Positions 35,290 to 55,237 are shown, numbered from the stretch's first letter. The stretch: DNA of 64,000 bases from an uncultured Candidatus Saccharibacteria bacterium (GCA_964415895.1 CAYQCC010000004.1:243-64242); one strand, 5' to 3'. Program-made: numbers and translations. The notes: generated by a model not told the origin, from the letters alone.

Positions 35290-35511
35290 CTATTTGGCGT
35301 TTAGTAAAGTTAAAGGTGCAACAATGTCTGGATGACTGCACAAGCCTATTGATTTAACTTTTAATGAATCAACCTCTTTATTTTTGAATTTAAGCCAATC
35401 CGGTCGGGTGACCGTATGGTTAAACTCAATGGTTACTGGTGATTCGGAGCCGTTTAGAATCCTTAATCTAGTAGGATTAAAAAAATCTAAAATTTTTTGT
35501 GAAGCTGCCAT
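35290..35511 (-). CDS. Hypothetical small protein
   Basis: 73 aa ORF. Confidence 0.2.
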   Translation of the reverse strand: MAASQKILDFFNPTRLRILNGSESPVTIEFNHTVTRPDWLKFKNKEVDSLKVKSIGLCSHPDIVAPLTLLNAK

Positions 35512-36189
35512 TTTTTAATTGTTTTAGTTTTTATAATTTGGTTCTTTTATAGTTTTAATTTTGGTTCAATGGTAACCTACCCCCCCCTTTTTTTTATTAA
35601 ATTTTTATAATTTTGGACTGCAAAGATACGATAAACAATTTTATTTACATAATGTAATTTTTTTTGCACAAATTGTTTATTACTTGCTCTAAATTGGATT
35701 GTAATATAATTATTAATTTAAAGCAAGTCCTTAAATACGCGATTCCATTTCTCTACATTTTCTTCGAATCTTTTGCACATTTTTCGATGCAATTTTACAC
35801 ATCAATTTAAACACTTTTAAACTTTGATTTAAACACCTGTGGACAAGCATTTGATATTCACCAACCTATAACGCCTAAATATCTAAAAAAGTATTTAAAA
35901 TCTGTTAAATTATAAGAACAATATTAAAATTAGCTAGGATTTAAGGGTTTATGTTACACAATTTAATAAATATTTTGCAAAAATAAGACCTGTTTTTCTC
36001 AAAGTCAAAATTTAAAGATGAATATTTAGTGTCCTTGAGATGTAATTATACTCTCTTATTGCTAAAATAATGTCCTATTCTTTTCTTTTTTTGGCACAAA
36101 TTAAACTAAATAACACTACTCACATATATATGCGCCTTATACAGAACAATACATTTTTTAATAAAAACTTGCCCTCTCGGGCAAGTAAA

Positions 36190-46382: not shown

Positions 46383-46454
46383 GCCCTTGTAGTTCAATGG
46401 ATAGAACAGGAGACTTCTAAGCTCTTAATCGAGGTTCGATTCCTCGCGAGGGCA
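46383..46454 (+). tRNA. tRNA-Arg (TCT)
   Basis: Anticodon loop CTTCTAA, D-arm GTTC-AATGGATA-GAAC, T-arm CGAGGTTCGATTCCTCG. Confidence 0.8.
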
Positions 46455-46560
46455 CATTCAAGGCCGACGCGGAGGCCTCAAAAACCTTAGCAAATCTTTA
46501 TCTTTTCATTATGTATATTTCGTAATTATTTTATGGTAAGGTTCCATAATATATCCGTAT

Positions 46561-48492
46561 ATGCCTGATGAAAACAAAGAGACAACTCAAGAAAAACCAA
46601 AGAATCCCCTCGAAGGGTTTTTTGGCATCAAGGATACGACTAATCTCTATAACTATGTTTTAGTATTGCTTCGGCCAAAAGGAGTGGCCTACGAAATTGA
46701 TCCACTTTGGACAGCATATCAAAACATTATATCTGGCCAAGATGTAGAGATTACAGAAAATTTGATCATGGAATCATTAGAATTGATATTCAACCTAATT
46801 GAGCATGCACAAGGTAATTCCTGCAATCCTTCACCCTTTGTTACATACTGTGACGATATGGGTTTTTGGTTAAAGCCACGTTTGAAAGAAATTGTTGCAT
46901 ATGTGTCCAAAGTCGCACAAAAATATGATTATATAGAATTATCTGATCAGATAAAAAATATACTCACAGATACGGTTATTGACTCGGTCACTAACGGTAA
47001 TGACCAGGACTTATCTCTTGTTAAGGAGTTCATAAAAGAATTCGTTGTTTTGTATTTTCAAGCTCGATTGGAATTTAACAAAGTACCAGGTCGACTTTTA
47101 TATAAATTTCCAAGGTTCGAGGTTTTTGAAATTCTGAAAAATGAAGAGTATGGTCTTTATGGTCTTAATATGCACTTTTCAAATGGATCAAGCGCAAATT
47201 ATGAGCGTGTTGGCGAAAAAAGAACAGGGATGAATATTATGTGTGATCATCCAATAGGTTTTTTTGTTGGGATGAATGATGATTTAAAAAGGGAGTGGCG
47301 TATCGGCGATAAGCATCTTTACGAAATAGGACTTCCTGGAAGATATAATAATTGGGGCGAGTGGAGACCTCTCGTTCATCCGGGCGATTACACACAATTT
47401 GAGACGGAAAGTGTACGCATTGCTGAAGGCGATCTTGAAATAGCGAGCATCTTATTTTTTGTCATGTGTACTGGGCATAGAATAATTGAATTCGTAGCGA
47501 AAACACCAATAGAAATGCCGCATAGTGACTTTTCTCTGGGTGGCCACCTGTATTTGCATAAATGCGACAAGCCTGAGGAAAGTTCCCATCGGGCAAACGA
47601 TTTTGTTTTATATGATGGTCATTTTACTCTTGATGAACTCACCCCACTTGCGATAAGGTCAGCTATTGCTTCTATAAGTGTAGGCTTGAATCGCATGGCA
47701 TTTGCCTATGGATCAAACATTGAATGGGTGCCTAAATATTCAATGGTTCAGCACAACCCCCACGGCAAACCAACTCCTACTGAGGAGGATTTAAAAGTAC
47801 TTGAATCAATGCTGGTTGATTTTCCAAATAATGAAGACGCTATCGTTCTTGATATCTGCATAGACTGGTTTCACCGTGGGGAACTTGCGAGAAAGAAAAA
47901 TGTATTCCTTGCATTCCTTTGTTACTATATTGCACTAGAGAGTGTCGTTATCGCTATCACGGAAGGAGATGCTGATCTTGGATTTAATTATGAAAAAGAA
48001 ACCCGTACGGAAAGAAAAGATCGAGTGAATCAAGGAATCCGCAGTCTACACGAAGAACTATACGAGACCGATCCTGAAAAATTTATCAAGGAAGCCTATT
48101 TCAATCATGTTATTGGACTTAAACAAAGGACGAAACAAATCTGTGAACGAGTATTTGGAGAGGGTCACGAATATATGAAATCTTTGTTTGAAAAAAATGA
48201 GGACGGGTTTTCCCTTTCTGACTTGAGAAGCGAATTAGCACATGGAGGGGCAACCCTTCTAAGCACAGAACATAGAAAAATGATTCGCGAACGATTACCA
48301 GAACTAGCTGAAATTGTCACCAGTTTTGTTAAAAAAATTATTCTTAAACCAGAGCAGGAGTTTCCTAAATGGTCCCGTTCTCATAGTTTTTCTGTGTATC
48401 CAAGCGATCCAAGAGATACTATGATTATGACCGATGAAAGGGTGACGGGCAATGTGGGTGGCTGGAAAATAAAACCAGAGTGGATGGACTAG
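46561..48492 (+). CDS. Large hypothetical protein with C-terminal HEPN-like Rx4H motif (candidate abortive-infection/RNase)
   Basis: 643 aa. C-terminal LSDLRSELAHGG (R-x4-H) in a helical domain. No other recognised domain. Adjacent to a serine recombinase. Confidence 0.35.
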   Translation: MPDENKETTQEKPKNPLEGFFGIKDTTNLYNYVLVLLRPKGVAYEIDPLWTAYQNIISGQDVEITENLIMESLELIFNLIEHAQGNSCNPSPFVTYCDDMGFWLKPRLKEIVAYVSKVAQKYDYIELSDQIKNILTDTVIDSVTNGNDQDLSLVKEFIKEFVVLYFQARLEFNKVPGRLLYKFPRFEVFEILKNEEYGLYGLNMHFSNGSSANYERVGEKRTGMNIMCDHPIGFFVGMNDDLKREWRIGDKHLYEIGLPGRYNNWGEWRPLVHPGDYTQFETESVRIAEGDLEIASILFFVMCTGHRIIEFVAKTPIEMPHSDFSLGGHLYLHKCDKPEESSHRANDFVLYDGHFTLDELTPLAIRSAIASISVGLNRMAFAYGSNIEWVPKYSMVQHNPHGKPTPTEEDLKVLESMLVDFPNNEDAIVLDICIDWFHRGELARKKNVFLAFLCYYIALESVVIAITEGDADLGFNYEKETRTERKDRVNQGIRSLHEELYETDPEKFIKEAYFNHVIGLKQRTKQICERVFGEGHEYMKSLFEKNEDGFSLSDLRSELAHGGATLLSTEHRKMIRERLPELAEIVTSFVKKIILKPEQEFPKWSRSHSFSVYPSDPRDTMIMTDERVTGNVGGWKIKPEWMD

Positions 48493-48494
48493 AC

Positions 48495-49799
48495 CTACTC
48501 CATCATCAATTTCTTATCTTTCAATAAGATCTTACTCTTAATACAACTCAGCACCTCTCGTTTCTCGAGCATCGTGCCGTGCTGTAACATGTACTTTGCG
48601 AAGGTTTTAATGTTTATATCATTACGTTTTTTGGATTGTTGCAAATCCTGTTTCAATACCCCTGTCTGGAATAGTGCGTACCGTGCGACTTCTTTTTCAA
48701 GCTTTTGCTTCAATTCAGTCCTGTCGAGGTTCATCTTTTCAATAATCAACAGCATCTCATCGATGAGCAGTGCTTCTTTTACCGATTCATTTGGACAGTC
48801 CCTGTCTTTCACTTTGGTGCATCGGTAGTACACATGCGCATTGGATCCTCCGTCTTTGAGTACCTTGATCTTTTCCTCGGCAGTAATCCCTGAAGCACAA
48901 TAGGCGCAGTGAAGCATGCTCGTGAATGCAAACTCGCGACCGTACGTTTTCTTTTTTTCAACTTTTATTTTCTCTTGCGCGGCTTCAAATAATTCTCGGG
49001 TAATGATGGGTGTATGCTTGCCCGTATACCATTCCCCACTCTTTTCTGGATATTCAAATACTCCATAAAAGAATGTCATGCGAAGCAACCTGTAAATATT
49101 TCCAAGTGTCAACAATTTTCCGCTCTTGGTTTTGAATCCAGTTTCTTTGAGCCATTTGTATATCTTCCTGCCTGAGTAATTTTCATTGGCGACTTTTTCA
49201 AACATTTCTTTGATAATCGGTGCCCTTTTCGGATCCACGAATACCTGGCATTTCTCGTCCTTGTTCTTGCTATTCAGATATCCAGTCGGTGCCATGGATG
49301 GCCTCAATCCCATCGATGCGCGCGTTCGCAATCCTCGCTTCACATTGATCACCTTGTTGTCGTTCTCGAGCTTTGCCTGCGAACCAAGAATCATGAGAAG
49401 GAATTTTTCATTCGGATTGTTCGTGAACCTCTGCCCACCGAACGTTCGTATCTCAGTCAAAAGTCCCTGATCCATCAGATCCACAATTCTTCCGAGATCG
49501 CCTGCATTACGGCTGATACGGTCGGGTGCCCATGTCAGGATTCCATCGAATTTCTTTTGCTTTATTTCCTCGACAATCTCGTTGAATACTGGCCGTTGCC
49601 CTGCCTCCTTTGCGGAATGAGACTCCTGTTTTATGAGCACGATTTCCAAGTTCTCAGCTTCTGCCATTTTCTGCATTTCCTTGATCTGACTGTCTATGGA
49701 AAGTATCTGCTTGTCCTCCTGTTCCGTACTTTTTCGAGCATACAGGCAGTATTTCACCCTTACAGGTATTGACGGTTTCGCCATTACCCCTGTCGCCAT
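48495..49799 (-). CDS. Large serine recombinase
   Basis: YARKSTEQED catalytic Ser region plus recombinase and Zn-ribbon domains. Start taken at MATGVMAKP (49799). The longer ORF to 49955 reads into the IS. Confidence 0.8.
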   Translation of the reverse strand: MATGVMAKPSIPVRVKYCLYARKSTEQEDKQILSIDSQIKEMQKMAEAENLEIVLIKQESHSAKEAGQRPVFNEIVEEIKQKKFDGILTWAPDRISRNAGDLGRIVDLMDQGLLTEIRTFGGQRFTNNPNEKFLLMILGSQAKLENDNKVINVKRGLRTRASMGLRPSMAPTGYLNSKNKDEKCQVFVDPKRAPIIKEMFEKVANENYSGRKIYKWLKETGFKTKSGKLLTLGNIYRLLRMTFFYGVFEYPEKSGEWYTGKHTPIITRELFEAAQEKIKVEKKKTYGREFAFTSMLHCAYCASGITAEEKIKVLKDGGSNAHVYYRCTKVKDRDCPNESVKEALLIDEMLLIIEKMNLDRTELKQKLEKEVARYALFQTGVLKQDLQQSKKRNDINIKTFAKYMLQHGTMLEKREVLSCIKSKILLKDKKLMME

Positions 49800-49928
49800 T
49801 TGTTGCGTTATATTCATACACACCATCAATGACGCAATCCCTCCGAGGAGTCCAGGACGGGTCTGTTGATAACTAATTCCTCTGAAAGTCCCAGATTTCG
49901 TTTTTCCAATGAAGGAATATAATCCGCA

Positions 49929-51197
49929 ATATGCGGTGTTTTTGTTTGGTCGCAAAATTCTAAAAAATATATGAATAAAATATTATCGTACGATGAATAC
50001 CAGAAGAAAATTAAGAGTCTTACTACTCCTGAAGAAATAGCCGCATTCGCTCAGGAACTTATCACCCCCATGCTGAACAATGTCGCAAAGGATGAGCCGA
50101 ATATTGTCGAGGAAAAAATAGAGAAGAAACTGCCTGCTGATGAAAAGCCAGCAAGCCTACCTACTATCAAGCCTAAGTATAACCGCAGGAATCCTTATCA
50201 GCTGGAAACGATGAGTCCTTGGTATGACGTGGTTGGAAACGACACCGAAGCCATGGTTATCGATCTCTATGCTAAAGGCCTGACTACTCGAGACATCGTA
50301 AACCATCTGAAGCGAAGCCATAACATCGACATTTCCCAGCCCAACGTATCCACGATCACCGACAAGGTATTTCCGCTGGTTAAAGAATGGCAATCCCGCG
50401 CATTGTCATCATGTTATCCGATTCTGTATCTCGACGGCATGCACTTCAAGGTTCGGGATGCTGGGAAGATTTCCTCAAAGGTCGCGTATATCGCTCTTGG
50501 TATCAATCAGTATGGACACAAGGAAATTCTCGGCATCTGGATCAGTGAAACTGAAGGGGCGAAATTCTGGATGCATGTCTTGAACGATCTGAAGAATCGT
50601 GGAGTCGATGACATTCTCATCGCGTGCGTTGACGGATTGAAAGGTTTTCCCGAAGCCATCAAGGCCATGTATCCGCATACCGATGTTCAAGTCTGCGTAG
50701 TTCATCAGATCAGACACACTGTTATGTTCATTGCATCGAAAGATAAGGAAAAGTTTTCCGATGAGTTAAAAACTATCTACACTGCACCATCTGAAGATGC
50801 AGGGTTGGAGGCTCTGAAGAACATGCAGGAACGATGGCCGATTTACCAAGCGTATCTGAAAGGTTGGGAGACGCGCTGGGCAGATCTCGCGCCATTCTTC
50901 AGCTATCCGCAAGCCGTGCGAAAGACCGTTTACACGACAAATGCGATTGAAAATCTCAATCGCCAATTCAGAAAGGTAACCAAGACGACACAACTATTCC
51001 CCCATGACGATGCGCTCTTGAAATTGCTCTGGCTTGCGCAAGCAGACATCACGCAAAATTGGCAAATGGCCATCCGCAATTGGGGCGAGGTCATGGCACA
51101 GCTTAGCATCATGTTTCCTGATCGGGTGCAGTTCTAATAACCAAACTATTAACACTTACTAATTAGCGCGACGCAAACAGATGTTTACACCGCATAT
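49929..51197 (+). mobile_element. IS256-family insertion sequence
   Basis: Transposase gene flanked by imperfect inverted ends atatgcggtgt... (left) and ...acaccgcatat (right). Confidence 0.6.
49971..51137 (+). CDS. IS256-family (Mutator-type) transposase
   Basis: 388 aa. ALGINQYGHKEILGIWI...CVDGLKGFPEAI...VQVCVVHQIRH conserved DDE region. Confidence 0.85.
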   Translation: MNKILSYDEYQKKIKSLTTPEEIAAFAQELITPMLNNVAKDEPNIVEEKIEKKLPADEKPASLPTIKPKYNRRNPYQLETMSPWYDVVGNDTEAMVIDLYAKGLTTRDIVNHLKRSHNIDISQPNVSTITDKVFPLVKEWQSRALSSCYPILYLDGMHFKVRDAGKISSKVAYIALGINQYGHKEILGIWISETEGAKFWMHVLNDLKNRGVDDILIACVDGLKGFPEAIKAMYPHTDVQVCVVHQIRHTVMFIASKDKEKFSDELKTIYTAPSEDAGLEALKNMQERWPIYQAYLKGWETRWADLAPFFSYPQAVRKTVYTTNAIENLNRQFRKVTKTTQLFPHDDALLKLLWLAQADITQNWQMAIRNWGEVMAQLSIMFPDRVQF

Positions 51198-51202
51198 AAA
51201 AA

Positions 51203-51228
51203 ACCAAGATCATATCCTGGTTTTTTAT
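51203..51228 (-). terminator. Intrinsic terminator downstream of tRNA-Arg
   Basis: aaaaaaccaggatatgatcttggtttttt on the minus strand. Confidence 0.55.
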
Positions 51229-51233
51229 CTAAG

Positions 51234-51306
51234 TGCCCTCGGCAGGACTCGAACCCGCATCTTCCTCAGTAGAACAGAGGCACCCTATCCATTGGACCAC
51301 GAGGGC
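51234..51306 (-). tRNA. tRNA-Arg (probable TCT anticodon), second divergent copy
   Basis: Acceptor GCCCTCG/CGAGGGC, T-arm GCGGGTTCGAGTCCTGC, anticodon arm CCTCT-GTTCTAC-TGAGG with a T-T closing mismatch. Only about 70% identical to the tRNA-Arg at 46383 (aligned by eye) and higher GC. Confidence 0.6.
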
Positions 51307-51422: not shown

Positions 51423-52421
51423 TTACTTTTTTATTTGCATCGATTCTACTCTCTGTATCAGTTTCCATCCGTTTCCATGCGACAGCAGTCCGCGGTACGA
51501 ATTAACCACTGCCTCATCCCCTGCATAGATCCCTGGATTGCTGAGCATTCTACGCTTCGTTGCAGTACGCAGTGTCCGATGATGTGGAAAATGAACCCAC
51601 CCGAGAAAATCTATCCCCGAGGCAAGCGTCTTGATAAATAATTTATTCGGATGCAACGATAATTTTAATTTGGTTTCGAGAAACTCGGAAATCTGCGGAA
51701 CGAGGTTTTCTAAGTAATCCTTGTCCTCATGCAGAATGGCGAAATCGTCCGCATAACGAATATAGTGTTTTATTTTGAGCGTTCGCTTCATGAAGTGGTC
51801 AAATTCATTCATATATACGTTCACCAGAAGTTGTGATGTTAGGTTTCCCAACGGCAAGCCGACATCGACTCTGCCTTCGGTCGAAAAACTATCGATGAGC
51901 CGATCGAATAACTGAAGAAGCTTCTTGTCCTGAATATGCTCCGACAGAATCCTTTTTAGGATTACATGGTCAATGTTCGCAAAGAATTTCCTGATGTCGC
52001 ATTTCAAAATCCAGCACGCCCGCGTATTGTTTTTGGAAACGATGCGCGAGAAATCTGTGAAGCGATTCATCGCCTTATGAGTCCCCTTGTTGATGCGACA
52101 GGAATACGAATCATAGATAAATTTTTTATCAAAATATGGGTACAGTTCATCATGCAAGAGATGGTGCAGTAATCGATCTCGCACCGTCGCCTTATGGATA
52201 TTCCTCGGCTTCGGGTCACTAATTTTAAATGCATCATATCCGCTATGGTGATACTTTTTATATTTCAAATCGTGATGCACATTTAATATGTGTTCCATTA
52301 AATTTCTTTCGAACTCTAGCACGTCGCGTTTTTGTTTTTTGCCGCGGCGAAACTCACGCCATGCGTGTAATAAATTTTCAACCGATATGATATCATCATA
52401 GTTATGATCAAAAAACTTCAT
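51423..52421 (-). CDS. Diversity-generating retroelement reverse transcriptase
   Basis: RT motifs: ISDPKPRNIHKATVRDRLLHH (motif 1/2), LGNLTSQ (the DGR-specific IGxxxSQ replacing QGxxxSP), YADDFAIL (YxDD). Start taken at MKFFDHNYDDIISVENLLHAW. The ORF-track start 52607 reads through a poly-C tract. Confidence 0.85.
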   Translation of the reverse strand: MKFFDHNYDDIISVENLLHAWREFRRGKKQKRDVLEFERNLMEHILNVHHDLKYKKYHHSGYDAFKISDPKPRNIHKATVRDRLLHHLLHDELYPYFDKKFIYDSYSCRINKGTHKAMNRFTDFSRIVSKNNTRACWILKCDIRKFFANIDHVILKRILSEHIQDKKLLQLFDRLIDSFSTEGRVDVGLPLGNLTSQLLVNVYMNEFDHFMKRTLKIKHYIRYADDFAILHEDKDYLENLVPQISEFLETKLKLSLHPNKLFIKTLASGIDFLGWVHFPHHRTLRTATKRRMLSNPGIYAGDEAVVNSYRGLLSHGNGWKLIQRVESMQIKK

Positions 52422-52839
52422 TCCAATAATATTACCCCCCCCCCCGACGATTTTACCAGTGCTGAGTAAGGTAAAAACTGTGTACATCTCATGGTTCGAT
52501 GTGTATAAAAAATTAGAAAAAGTACATAAATACACGCTCGGACAAAAGATTGATAATTTGTTTGTTGAGATTATAGAATCGATATCGCTCGCGACGTTTT
52601 TGGACAAAACAGAAAAACAGCCGTGGATCAGATTTGCGATCAGGAAATTGGATACGGTGAAAATACTGCTATTGATATTATGGGAAACACGCTCGATTGA
52701 TGATACGGTCTACATTACCCTGTCAGAACCAATCCACGAGATTGGTAAAATGCTGGGTGGTTGGAACGGGCAGCTGACAAAACTGTCCGAGAATGCAAAA
52801 TAAAACTCATCCAGATTTTGGATGAGAAACGAAATAATA

Positions 52840-52968
52840 TGCTGGAACGGAACACGAAACGGTTGTTCCCATTCCACCTGTTGTCCATGTGGCCATTGTT
52901 GTTGTTCAACCACGGTTCGGAATCGTTCCGATTCACGTTGAACAGTTTCGGGTCACCGTCTGCGTCAG
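52840..52968 (-). repeat. DGR template repeat (TR)
   Basis: About 129 nt, near-identical to 53317-53448. Every mismatch corresponds to an adenine in this copy on the minus strand. AAC-rich when translated (NNNNGHMDNRWNGNN). Confidence 0.85.
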
Positions 52969-53308: not shown

Positions 53309-55237
53309 CTAAGACTTGCTGGAACGGAACACGAAACGGTAGAGCCCATGCCACCCGCTGTCCACGCGGCCATAGCAGTAGTAGTCCAACCACGGTACGG
53401 AAGCGTACCGAGACACGCGGAACAGTACCGGGCCACCGCCTGCGCCAGCAATCGGTTCCATTGCAATTCGTAGATATTCGTCATTTGGCTGATCGGTGTA
53501 CGACAATCGCAATTCTGGTCCCACCTGTGGCGGACACAGTTCCAATCCCATGGATCGTGCCTTGTCATAAATTTCCTGCAACGTCGCGCCGTTTGGAAAC
53601 CCAAGCTGTTCAACGGAAAATGAAACGAGCTTGATCTGCTCAGGAGATTTCAATGGCTCAATCTTGTTTAAGATTTGCTGCGCGTAGGTATATACCTGAT
53701 TACCCTTATCAATGAGCTCTTTTGTGTACTGTTCTGGCGTCTTGGTAGACAATTCCAAAGATTGCTTGAAGATTTTTGTCTCTGGGAATGATTCGTACAG
53801 ATACTGTACTGTGTCAGGCATTTTTTGATATATGTCGACATTCCACGGTCCGATATAAGCGACGGTATGTTCATTTACCTGATCAACATTATTTGCAATT
53901 TGGTCTGGCGTGCAGTCAAAAATTACAGGCGCGTCATCCATTGCATTTCTGGTTGAGAGAATTTCTGCAATACGCGGATCTTTCTGGTAACCGAACCCTT
54001 CAATGGAACCATCCATTTCGTACAAGAACCGAAGGTCGGCCGATGACAGCGCTAACCCTGCGCGATTCTTTTCAGTAATCGCAGTGAGATGTTTCATGTC
54101 GGCGGATCGTTTAAGATATTTCTCCCCCTCTGCGCCAAACTCTGACAATTTTTCATCGATCACTGGCTGGATGAACTGGTCGACATTCTGGTCTTTTTCG
54201 ATTCCGCGAATTTCGGAAATACTATCCCCAGTCATTCGGATCGCGATGCGAGGAATCACGGAAATTCCCTGCTCGTCCTGGGAATAGTACACATGGAAAT
54301 CGCCACCTTGTAATTGTGTTCGTGCCGTTTCAATGTTCGTGGCAGTGCACCATTCCAGCGGATATCCCTGAAGCGATTCGTAGAGCTCGTTCGGTTCTGA
54401 ATTTTCTGGATATGTCTTCCATTTTCCTGCAATATTCTCGAGATGTTTCCATGACATTCCTGAGAATTGCTCCAATGCGTGGGTGTACAGTTTTGAAAAG
54501 TTTTCGGTAGACACCAGTTCGCGATACGTGCCGTCATGATTCAGCGAATACATCAACTCCTTTTCTTTCTTTTGGCGATCCAGCATGTTGACCTCGTCTT
54601 TCGGAATTCCCGAAAGGGCGACCTGCTTTTGGATCACGTCAATGGTCTTTGCGAGGCAGGCAATGTTGAGCGTCGGGAACGGCTGCGATGTCGTTTTGGT
54701 TCTCCTGCCGTATCGGGCTTCCTTTTTGTTGTATCCACCCATTTCTGTCATGCTGCGGAATGCCCAGTATTTTGCCCAGTCCGGGTACAGCGCATCTGGT
54801 GATGAAAGGTAGTCAATCCATGCATCGAGTGACCGTCGCTGTCCGTCTTGAATTTCCTTGATCTTTTTCTCTTCCCAATCTGGTGTTGGTTCGGGTCTCC
54901 CGTGTCCCTGCTGTTCTGCGATTCGCTGTTCCTGGTCAAGGAAGTAATCCAACGGGATGTTTTCTGGGCTGATGATCAGTTGTTTGTGAAGCACTCGCTT
55001 CATTGCCTCGATCCCCATGGCGCGCTTTTCTGGATCTTGGCGATCTAAAATTTCCTTGAACCTATTCAGGTAGTTTTCAATGCGATCTTCTGGCTTCTCG
55101 GAAACCTTTTCACCCTTGCGATATTCGGTCCGTTCGGCAGATTTCACCACTTCTGGTGAGGTATGCAGGTTTGCGTATTTCTTCTTGAGAAAATTAATCG
55201 GGTTTTCCATATGCATAACTTTACCACATATTGTCAA
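53309..55237 (-). CDS. DGR target protein with C-terminal variable region
   Basis: 642 aa, no signal peptide. The last ~45 aa (…GGGPVLFRVSRYASVPWLDYYCYGRVDSGWHGLYRFVFRSS) are encoded by the VR. The N-terminal 600 aa are uncharacterised. Confidence 0.75.
   Translation of the reverse strand: MTICGKVMHMENPINFLKKKYANLHTSPEVVKSAERTEYRKGEKVSEKPEDRIENYLNRFKEILDRQDPEKRAMGIEAMKRVLHKQLIISPENIPLDYFLDQEQRIAEQQGHGRPEPTPDWEEKKIKEIQDGQRRSLDAWIDYLSSPDALYPDWAKYWAFRSMTEMGGYNKKEARYGRRTKTTSQPFPTLNIACLAKTIDVIQKQVALSGIPKDEVNMLDRQKKEKELMYSLNHDGTYRELVSTENFSKLYTHALEQFSGMSWKHLENIAGKWKTYPENSEPNELYESLQGYPLEWCTATNIETARTQLQGGDFHVYYSQDEQGISVIPRIAIRMTGDSISEIRGIEKDQNVDQFIQPVIDEKLSEFGAEGEKYLKRSADMKHLTAITEKNRAGLALSSADLRFLYEMDGSIEGFGYQKDPRIAEILSTRNAMDDAPVIFDCTPDQIANNVDQVNEHTVAYIGPWNVDIYQKMPDTVQYLYESFPETKIFKQSLELSTKTPEQYTKELIDKGNQVYTYAQQILNKIEPLKSPEQIKLVSFSVEQLGFPNGATLQEIYDKARSMGLELCPPQVGPELRLSYTDQPNDEYLRIAMEPIAGAGGGPVLFRVSRYASVPWLDYYCYGRVDSGWHGLYRFVFRSSKS
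53317..53448 (-). repeat. DGR variable repeat (VR)
   Basis: Matches TR except at TR-adenine positions (about 25 substitutions) and one 3-nt indel in a triplet run. The identical 3' segment gctggaacggaacacgaaacgg is IMH-like. Confidence 0.85.

Follow-up and report, generated by a model that had tools for sequence, protein, structure and literature searches.

Why does a diversity-generating retroelement (DGR) carry a long run of cytosines directly before its reverse transcriptase (RT) gene, and which gene would that run affect? The question is raised by a stretch of 64,000 nucleotides from an uncultured Candidatus Saccharibacteria bacterium (GCA_964415895.1 CAYQCC010000004.1:243-64242), which is referred to here as the window. 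The DGR lies on the minus strand of the window. It has the order target gene with a 3' variable repeat (VR), template repeat (TR), reversed avd, and RT. The stretch from the 3' end of the TR (52840) to the RT ATG spans 52422-52839 and contains both avd and the run. A preliminary description, made from the sequence alone, had named it the TR-RT spacer, and the coordinates confirm this. The run is probably a frameshift-type contingency switch on avd, as far as sequence comparison can indicate. We also lean, with less assurance, toward the view that DGRs across a clade of the Candidate Phyla Radiation (CPR) are governed by a contingency locus of this kind. This would be a repeat in the avd/RT overlap whose unit has been replaced over evolution, with position and function kept.

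Repeats at the avd/RT junction

The run in the window is C11 on the plus strand (G11 on the RT strand) at 52435-52445. It is the longest homopolymer of the window, in which the next-longest are 8 nt. By our arithmetic, a C or G run of at least 11 nt is expected about 0.002 times per window at 20% C, so the run is not due to chance. It lies 14-24 nt upstream of the RT ATG, within the 37 nt that separate the listed avd GTG from that ATG. The preliminary description had given C10 at 52436-52445. The homopolymer is there; its length and coordinates had to be corrected.

We gathered 160 related loci whose RTs are 60-80% identical to that of the window; half of them (80) came from species-representative genomes and the other 80 from metagenomes. 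The RT relatives all come from CPR/Patescibacteria metagenome-assembled genomes (Parcubacteria, Saccharibacteria, and Nomurabacteria). Sixteen loci end too near the RT start, and 2 have the flank but no detectable avd. The other 142 and the window make up a set of 143 loci. Counts given below out of 120 or 122 are of non-identical loci. The 2 loci without avd (L058 and L129) have ample upstream flank yet gave no avd by tblastn (E <= 1e-3). Their architecture may differ, or their avd may be highly divergent.

The repeat is conserved in position. A simple non-A/T repeat was found at the avd/RT junction in 135/143 loci. Read on the RT strand, it is G7-G12 in ~87 loci, (GA)5-17 in ~40, (GT)11-15 in 3, and (TC)8 in 1. 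Rarer types are (CTGG)9 and (CTGG)11 in 2 loci and a TTGCTGA heptamer x3 in 1 locus. The units are 1, 2, 4, or 7 nt only, and none is a multiple of 3; among background repeats in the same loci, 9/40 are trinucleotide. Non-A/T repeats reach a density of 12 per kb in the junction intervals versus 0.048 per kb in the remaining 841 kb of the loci (853 kb in all), an enrichment of ~250-fold. A scan of viral contigs gave two more loci of the same kind, one with C8 (L165) and one with (GA)19 on the avd strand (L166). Five annotated phage DGR cassettes with same-strand avd-TR-RT, including BPP-1, had no repeat within or close to avd or at the RT start.

Three junctions (L043, L122, and L126) contain (GA)9-11 directly abutting G9-11. 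Such side-by-side repeats suggest that one repeat type is being replaced by another. A 7-nt unit recurs in independent sequences: the leader of the Avd homologue P0107, ...HQPSAISHQPS..., translates a heptanucleotide repeat similar to that of L072 (TCAGCAA x3).

The repeat is variable in length between near-identical genomes. L031 and L104, which come from different assemblies, have 0 mismatches over 5,963 nt except for (GA)12 versus (GA)9, a 6-nt difference. Between L098 and L100, the first 1,943 nt, with avd and the whole RT, are the same but for a single G (G9 versus G10). Further length pairs are L068/L117 (G8/G11), L106/L137 [(CTGG)9/(CTGG)11], and L015/L016 [(GT)15/(GT)13]. The closest relatives of the window (L161-L164; Avd 86-95% identical) have C10, C8, C11, and C11, with near-identical flanks. 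The closest relatives (P0001-P0004) were retrieved by an Avd protein search and not by the genome and metagenome scans, which gave no RT relative closer than 80%. An exact-sequence look-up of the window RT and Avd in other assemblies found no match. The tract had been described as slippage-prone and as a candidate switch tied to DGR activity. The differing lengths in close relatives and across the 143 loci agree with that description, and the length is not fixed across strains.

Long G/C homopolymers are error-prone, and single-base length differences could be errors. The run might then be a product of chance or of assembly or sequencing, without function, in an ordinary spacer. The 135 loci with the feature come from many studies and platforms, and the enrichment is at one position. 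The 6-nt (GA)n and 8-nt (CTGG)n differences are not homopolymer errors. The codon-bias signals described below lie on both flanks and are independent of tract length. We find an artefact or chance origin hardly credible.

The avd gene and its reading frame

The spacer contains a plus-strand ORF (open reading frame) of 114 aa at 52459-52803 with a GTG start, as had been described. Its translation matches Pfam bAvd (PF22296; E 3.1e-9, 37.7 bits, cut-off 40) and NCBIfam DivGenRetAVD (NF033474; E 5.6e-13, 49.1 bits, cut-off 80). Both matches are nearly full length and fall just under the curated cut-offs. PF22296 was precomputed in 120/120 homologues among the matches listed (of 735), which are 57-95% identical. 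A profile search of the window Avd against PDB sequences gave no match, and only fold comparison succeeded. The AlphaFold (AF2) model from 33 sequences had a predicted local distance difference test (pLDDT) score of 92.7, with helices at 2-18, 21-45, 50-76, and 82-112. The top Foldseek match of this model was the Bordetella phage Avd (4DWL), with a template-modeling (TM) score of 0.83-0.88 and a root mean square deviation of 1.5 A. Foldseek also matched the Avd chains of the DGR ribonucleoprotein (RNP) 8UB7/8UBB, and TM scores were 0.77-0.88 over the top matches. The gene adjoins the DGR RT and is divergent from it in the window and in all loci with detectable avd (143/143). On the hidden Markov model matches and the match of the predicted fold to 4DWL, the ORF is a genuine Avd, an accessory variability determinant predicted to form a four-helix bundle.

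The preliminary description had called the ORF Avd-sized but on the wrong strand. The profiles, homologues, and fold point to Avd itself, and the reversed orientation is normal here. It is that of the published architecture B3, TR-(avd)-RT, in which avd is by definition reversed (Wu et al. 2018, PMC5758913, Figure 5 legend). B3 was found in 90% of the CPR set of that study (PMC5758913). By its coordinates, the window likewise has a reverse-strand avd between TR and RT.

The avd gene is coding up to the repeat. Coding-type codon periodicity and protein conservation are seen from residue 1, with synonymous six-fold codon switches. The conserved residues AAPS, DNAS, and ILP extend to the repeat. 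No stop interrupts the avd frame across the repeat in 133/136 loci, and the repeat units on the avd strand have a stop codon in no frame. Residue 1 is GTG in only 14/120 loci and otherwise ATT, GTT, GCG, GTA, or others. Half of the loci (60/120) have no ATG, GTG, or TTG between the repeat and residue 8.

Start codons are found on the far side of the repeat. An upstream ATG on the avd strand, open into the repeat, is present within 70 nt in 122/122 loci and within 45 nt in 121. The random-position control gave 51% (70 nt) and 41% (45 nt). For most loci, the ATG lies antisense to RT codon His6. That codon is CAT in 87/87 loci versus 65% (1177/1818) at other RT His codons.

Relatives without the repeat are in frame from the far-side ATG (5/5; L077, L114, L138, L148, and L157). 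L021, with C6 only, is in frame; L091 and L124, with degenerate repeats, are out of frame. Many fused Avd homologues of 125-140 aa with the predicted leader are present in public protein sets. One of these (P0003), 88% identical to the window Avd, is a fused 132-aa form, MIKKIHSSNSTPPPTILPVLSK... / MIKKIHSSNSTPPPTILPVLSKVKTVY... The relative with C10 (L161) is in frame and encodes MIKKIHSSNSTPPPTILPVLSK...

The proposed avd start in the window is ATG 52404-52406 on the plus strand. In the present phase, the leader ORF spans 52404-52469 and reads MIKKLHSNNITPPPDDFTSAE. The frame from ATG 52404 reads MIKKLHSNNITPPP through C11, leaves the avd frame, and terminates at TAA 52467-52469. With C10 or C13, the leader would be fused to Avd (MIKKLHSNNITPPPTILPVLSKVK... 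/ TILPVLSKVKTVY...). C11 is out of frame and C10 is in frame; thus, the assembled allele is one slip from ON. In the window, a tract of mutable length whose unit is not a multiple of 3, C11, lies in the 5' portion of an ORF, between ATG 52404 and the Avd body. Head to head, the avd and RT start regions share 18 nt (52404-52421; ATGATCAAAAAACTTCAT, reverse complement ATGAAGTTTTTTGATCAT). Each ATG in this overlap is antisense to the sixth codon of the other gene, CAT (His).

The preliminary description had RT as the gene whose expression or N-terminal fusion is toggled by slippage. An in-frame upstream extension of RT (...GKIVGGGGNIIGMKFF...) is indeed present, as an ORF at 51423-52607 with a TTG start. 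It is incidental in the window for three reasons. Throughout the G/C-run class, to which the window belongs, RT starts at an ATG of its own on the RT side of the run. Stop codons often separate the run from the RT ATG in G-run relatives. The avd of this class does not avoid antisense stops; 33% of its Leu/Ser codons are TTA, CTA, or TCA. An RT N-terminal extension through the G-run was rejected for the window class on these stops and their lack of avoidance. What stands is a switch candidate linked to the DGR; the frame that it sets is that of avd and not that of RT.

Many loci of the (GA)n class lack a start codon in the interval that separates the repeat from the conserved N-terminus of RT. 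A class-specific His18 of avd is CAT in 34/34 loci. None of the Leu/Ser codons in avd codons -4 to 17 creates an antisense stop (0/132), versus 21% in the remaining avd. When the phase is codon-aligned, the antisense ATG (MRNNINPNQISLFDS...) opens an ORF that continues via (Glu-Arg)n into RT. The RT extension is still open and in frame in the repeat-free L148 and L157. The RT ORF of this sister class would start past the repeat, at the ATG antisense to avd His18. One repeat would then lie inside both overlapping ORFs, and it would gate both genes and switch them together.

A proposed frameshift switch and other explanations

We propose that avd translation starts at ATG 52404, embedded antisense in RT codon 6. 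The avd frame would read the run as Pro codons into the conserved Avd body. Replication slippage would shift the Avd body in or out of frame with its sole conserved start codon because the hypermutable unit is not a multiple of three. In Bordetella, Avd is the obligatory partner of the DGR reverse transcriptase. Loss of the frame would turn mutagenic retrohoming off, and its recovery would turn it on. The outcome would be a heritable, reversible, and stochastic switch on a targeted-hypermutation device. The C11 of the window would be an OFF length, and C10 or C13 would be ON. We infer that tracts slip often enough within populations to be useful, and that an allele out of frame makes no Avd and so has no DGR activity.

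Several points weigh against this switch. Only 32/120 repeat-bearing loci are in frame, and this ON fraction of 27% is not above the one-third expected for random phase. Either OFF is the usual state or expression is not strictly tied to DNA phase. Four independent contigs of one species (L071, L136, L139, and L140) share the OFF length C9. The window and its subfamily have GTG at residue 1 (52459), and a second GTG at 52480 has a Shine-Dalgarno-like TAAGGT upstream. Avd could be initiated independently of the repeat at either GTG in this subfamily. The need of CPR DGRs for Avd is presumed by analogy with the Bordetella system. A pure frameshift switch also leaves the strand bias of the repeat unexplained. 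G-runs are on the RT strand in 87/87 loci, and the RT strand also carries (GT)n in 3 loci and (GA)n in ~40; (GA)n is on the avd strand in just two loci, L079 and L166. The loci are phylogenetically related, and the counts are partly non-independent. Given the stem-loop enriched directly after the repeat, ribosomal or transcriptional slippage may contribute.

In the window, this stem-loop or palindrome is at 52451-52476 on the plus strand. TTTTACC (52451-52457) pairs with GGTAAAA (52470-52476), and the element shares sequence with avd codons -3 to 6. Over the 32 nt that follow the repeat, the mean folding energy was -4.96 kcal/mol versus -2.61 kcal/mol in control windows (114 loci, p = 4e-12), with -4.9 in the window. 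The stem arms vary by subfamily (GAGCAC/GTGCTC, GAGTAC/GTACTC, AGCGC/GCGCT, AACTTTTGCCA/TGGCAAAAGTT, and GAGAATTACC/GGTAATTCTC). Its role could be that of an operator, of a structure at the mRNA 5' end, or of a stimulator of frameshifting or slippage.

A stimulator would fit recoding, by ribosomal frameshifting on the Pro-codon run (C CCC CCC) with the hairpin or by RNA polymerase slippage. Avd would then be made at a low constitutive level in any phase, and the repeat would be an attenuator. A C-run of at least 9 is perfectly slippery in either direction, and CCC-C is known to be prone to +1 shifts. The subfamily-specific stems right after the repeat, far above controls, are in favor of recoding. 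So are a phase distribution no better than random and the out-of-frame C9 shared by four contigs. Against it, the same position is also taken by (TC)n, (AC)n, (CCAG)n, and the heptamer, none of which is known as a ribosomal slippery site. The spacing of 0-3 nt between run and hairpin is under that usual for frameshift stimulators. Repeat-free relatives are simply in frame, and tract length differs between otherwise identical genomes, which is the behavior of a contingency locus at the DNA level. We consider recoding unlikely.

The repeat may also act on transcription. It would be the spacer or an upstream element of overlapping divergent avd and RT promoters, and its length would tune the strength of one or both. 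It lies between divergent genes whose listed start codons are merely 37 nt apart. On the RT strand of the window, the G-run is followed by TAATAT with the RT ATG 7 nt on, which fits a -10 box and a leaderless mRNA. TATAAT is at the same place in L093, L098, and L100. The poly-G of Neisseria porA is a case of promoter-type phase variation. In Haemophilus influenzae, the (TA)n between hifA and hifB is said (van Ham and colleagues, in 1993) to be the -35/-10 spacer of overlapping divergent promoters. The likeness is that of one repeat between divergent genes, potentially controlling both. Unlike hifA/hifB, the 7- to 44-nt tracts and the codon-level evidence here point to reading-frame control. 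A consensus scan found no sigma-70-like promoter spanning the run on either strand. Tracts such as (GA)5-17 and (CTGG)11 are far beyond a workable -35/-10 spacer, and the sequence after the run is not kept as a -10 box across classes (e.g., TCCCAGAAAT). A promoter role leaves unexplained the CAT codons (87/87 and 34/34), the avoidance of antisense stops, the missing downstream starts, and the in-frame repeat-free relatives. Promoter control is improbable as the explanation of the repeat, and promoter tuning could coexist with a frameshift switch.

The preliminary description had offered a structured RNA as an alternative. In this case, the spacer with its G-run would be a cis-acting DGR RNA, the equivalent of the Bordetella "Sp" for priming of cDNA. 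The RNA between TR and brt of Bordetella BPP-1 is reportedly needed for priming, a finding attributed to Handa and colleagues (2018). A short, stable hairpin is present beside the TR (52826-52806, folding z = -2.97). The whole TR-to-RT RNA of 418 nt folds no better than shuffled sequences (z = -0.39), and the spacer is mostly antisense to a protein-coding gene. The repeat varies in unit (G, GA, GT, CTGG, and heptamer) and length, which is incompatible with a fixed pairing partner. The run is ~400 nt from the TR. It is past a terminator-like hairpin and T-run just 3' of the TR (52797-52826, TR/RT strand), which overlaps the avd stop codon. An Sp-like role is very unlikely.

The cassette and its relation to known systems

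The RT has 332 aa (51423-52421, minus strand; A of the ATG at 52421) and matches RVT_1 with an E value of 1.6e-22. The TR has 129 nt (52840-52968, minus strand) and forms a repeat pair with the VR (53317-53448, minus strand). The VR is at the 3' end of a target gene of 642 aa (53309-55237, minus strand). TR and VR are 79-82% identical, and a DGR-clade RT adjoins the repeat pair. All TR/VR substitutions are at TR adenines on the minus strand, as expected of a DGR. The target protein had no Pfam or NCBIfam match at E <= 0.1.

The VR is 3 nt longer than the TR and has one additional codon in the run templated by the TR (AAC)n. The TR reads ...CAACAACAA-CAATGG..., and the VR reads ...CTACTACTGCTATGG... 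at the insertion. In-frame indels opposite AAC have been described, and this insertion is of that kind (Wu et al. 2018, PMC5758913). The terminator-like hairpin after the TR would make the TR RNA a separate short transcript in this genome. A post-TR terminator as a clade-wide trait was rejected, since only 13/117 relatives had one by strict search. An 18-nt complementarity (78%) between the run flank and the avd 3' region is one of 11 similar pairs in 5 kb and was put down to chance.

Two different tRNA-Arg(TCT) genes, 78% identical, are present at 46383-46455 (plus strand) and 51233-51306 (minus strand). The second is 117 nt past the RT stop. They flank three ORFs, which are a 643-aa ORF, a serine-recombinase-like ORF (48495-49955, minus strand), and a 388-aa ORF (49971-51137, plus strand) judged transposase-like by eye. 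The tRNA-bracketed segment (46383-51306) is possibly an inserted mobile element beside the DGR. Elsewhere in the window, a C8 is directly followed by T8 at 35580-35595, within an AT-rich region of ~600 nt (35300-35900) that has no ORF of at least 80 aa.

The cassette has the same parts in the same order as the B3 TR-(avd)-RT DGRs (Wu et al. 2018, PMC5758913), which correspond to DGR clade 2 (Roux et al. 2021, PMC8144416). The architecture is identical to that in the B3 surveys; the variable junction repeat and the head-to-head ORF overlap are undescribed there. The terms "homopolymer," "frameshift," and "simple sequence" do not occur at all in PMC5758913, PMC8144416, and PMC11661182. We found no paper linking DGRs to homopolymers, simple repeats, contingency loci, or phase variation in the searchable literature, whose coverage does not extend to the main CPR DGR paper, Paul et al. 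2017. The DGR of BPP-1 (4DWL; RNP 8UB7) shares the Avd fold (TM 0.83-0.88, predicted), the RT family, and A-specific transfer from TR to VR. Its avd is on the same strand and upstream of the TR, and there is no simple repeat anywhere in the cassette. In BPP-1 the Sp RNA lies between TR and brt; in the window the antisense avd fills that interval.

Frameshift contingency loci have G/C or tetranucleotide repeats at the 5' ends of ORFs, as in Campylobacter (PMC8355987), Neisseria (hmbR poly-G, PMC3786947), and Haemophilus. The junction repeats resemble them in having a unit not divisible by 3 just after a start codon, with G/C tracts in the mutable range of at least 7. They also resemble them in the mixed ON and OFF phases among genomes and in length as the sole difference between identical sequences. 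They differ in that the gated gene is the cofactor of a hypermutation machine and not a surface or restriction-modification gene. They also differ in being in uncultured CPR hosts, in having a repeat common to two antisense-overlapping ORFs, and in a unit that is repeatedly replaced with its position kept. The DGR, Avd, the B3 layout, and repeat-mediated frameshift phase variation are already known, and their combination appears to be undescribed. The arrangement of the ORFs is itself unusual; they overlap in antisense and share one repeat, and each ATG is templated by the other's His CAT.

DGRs rewrite a gene at as many as all of the template adenines, yet many natural DGR loci look inactive. 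For how cells restrain them, a repeat switch on Avd would offer a simple answer across a clade, and this CPR clade holds a large share of known DGRs. The genomes also carry a warning for annotation, as avd and sometimes RT will often be called with wrong starts or as frameshifted. If the frameshift switch on avd is real, the mutator would be off in most cells and on in a minority that is small and always being renewed. Contingency loci are known mostly in pathogens adapted to a host, and the switch would add ultra-small uncultured bacteria to the organisms that have them. Targeted hypermutation would itself be phase variable, with a switch on the machine of evolvability.

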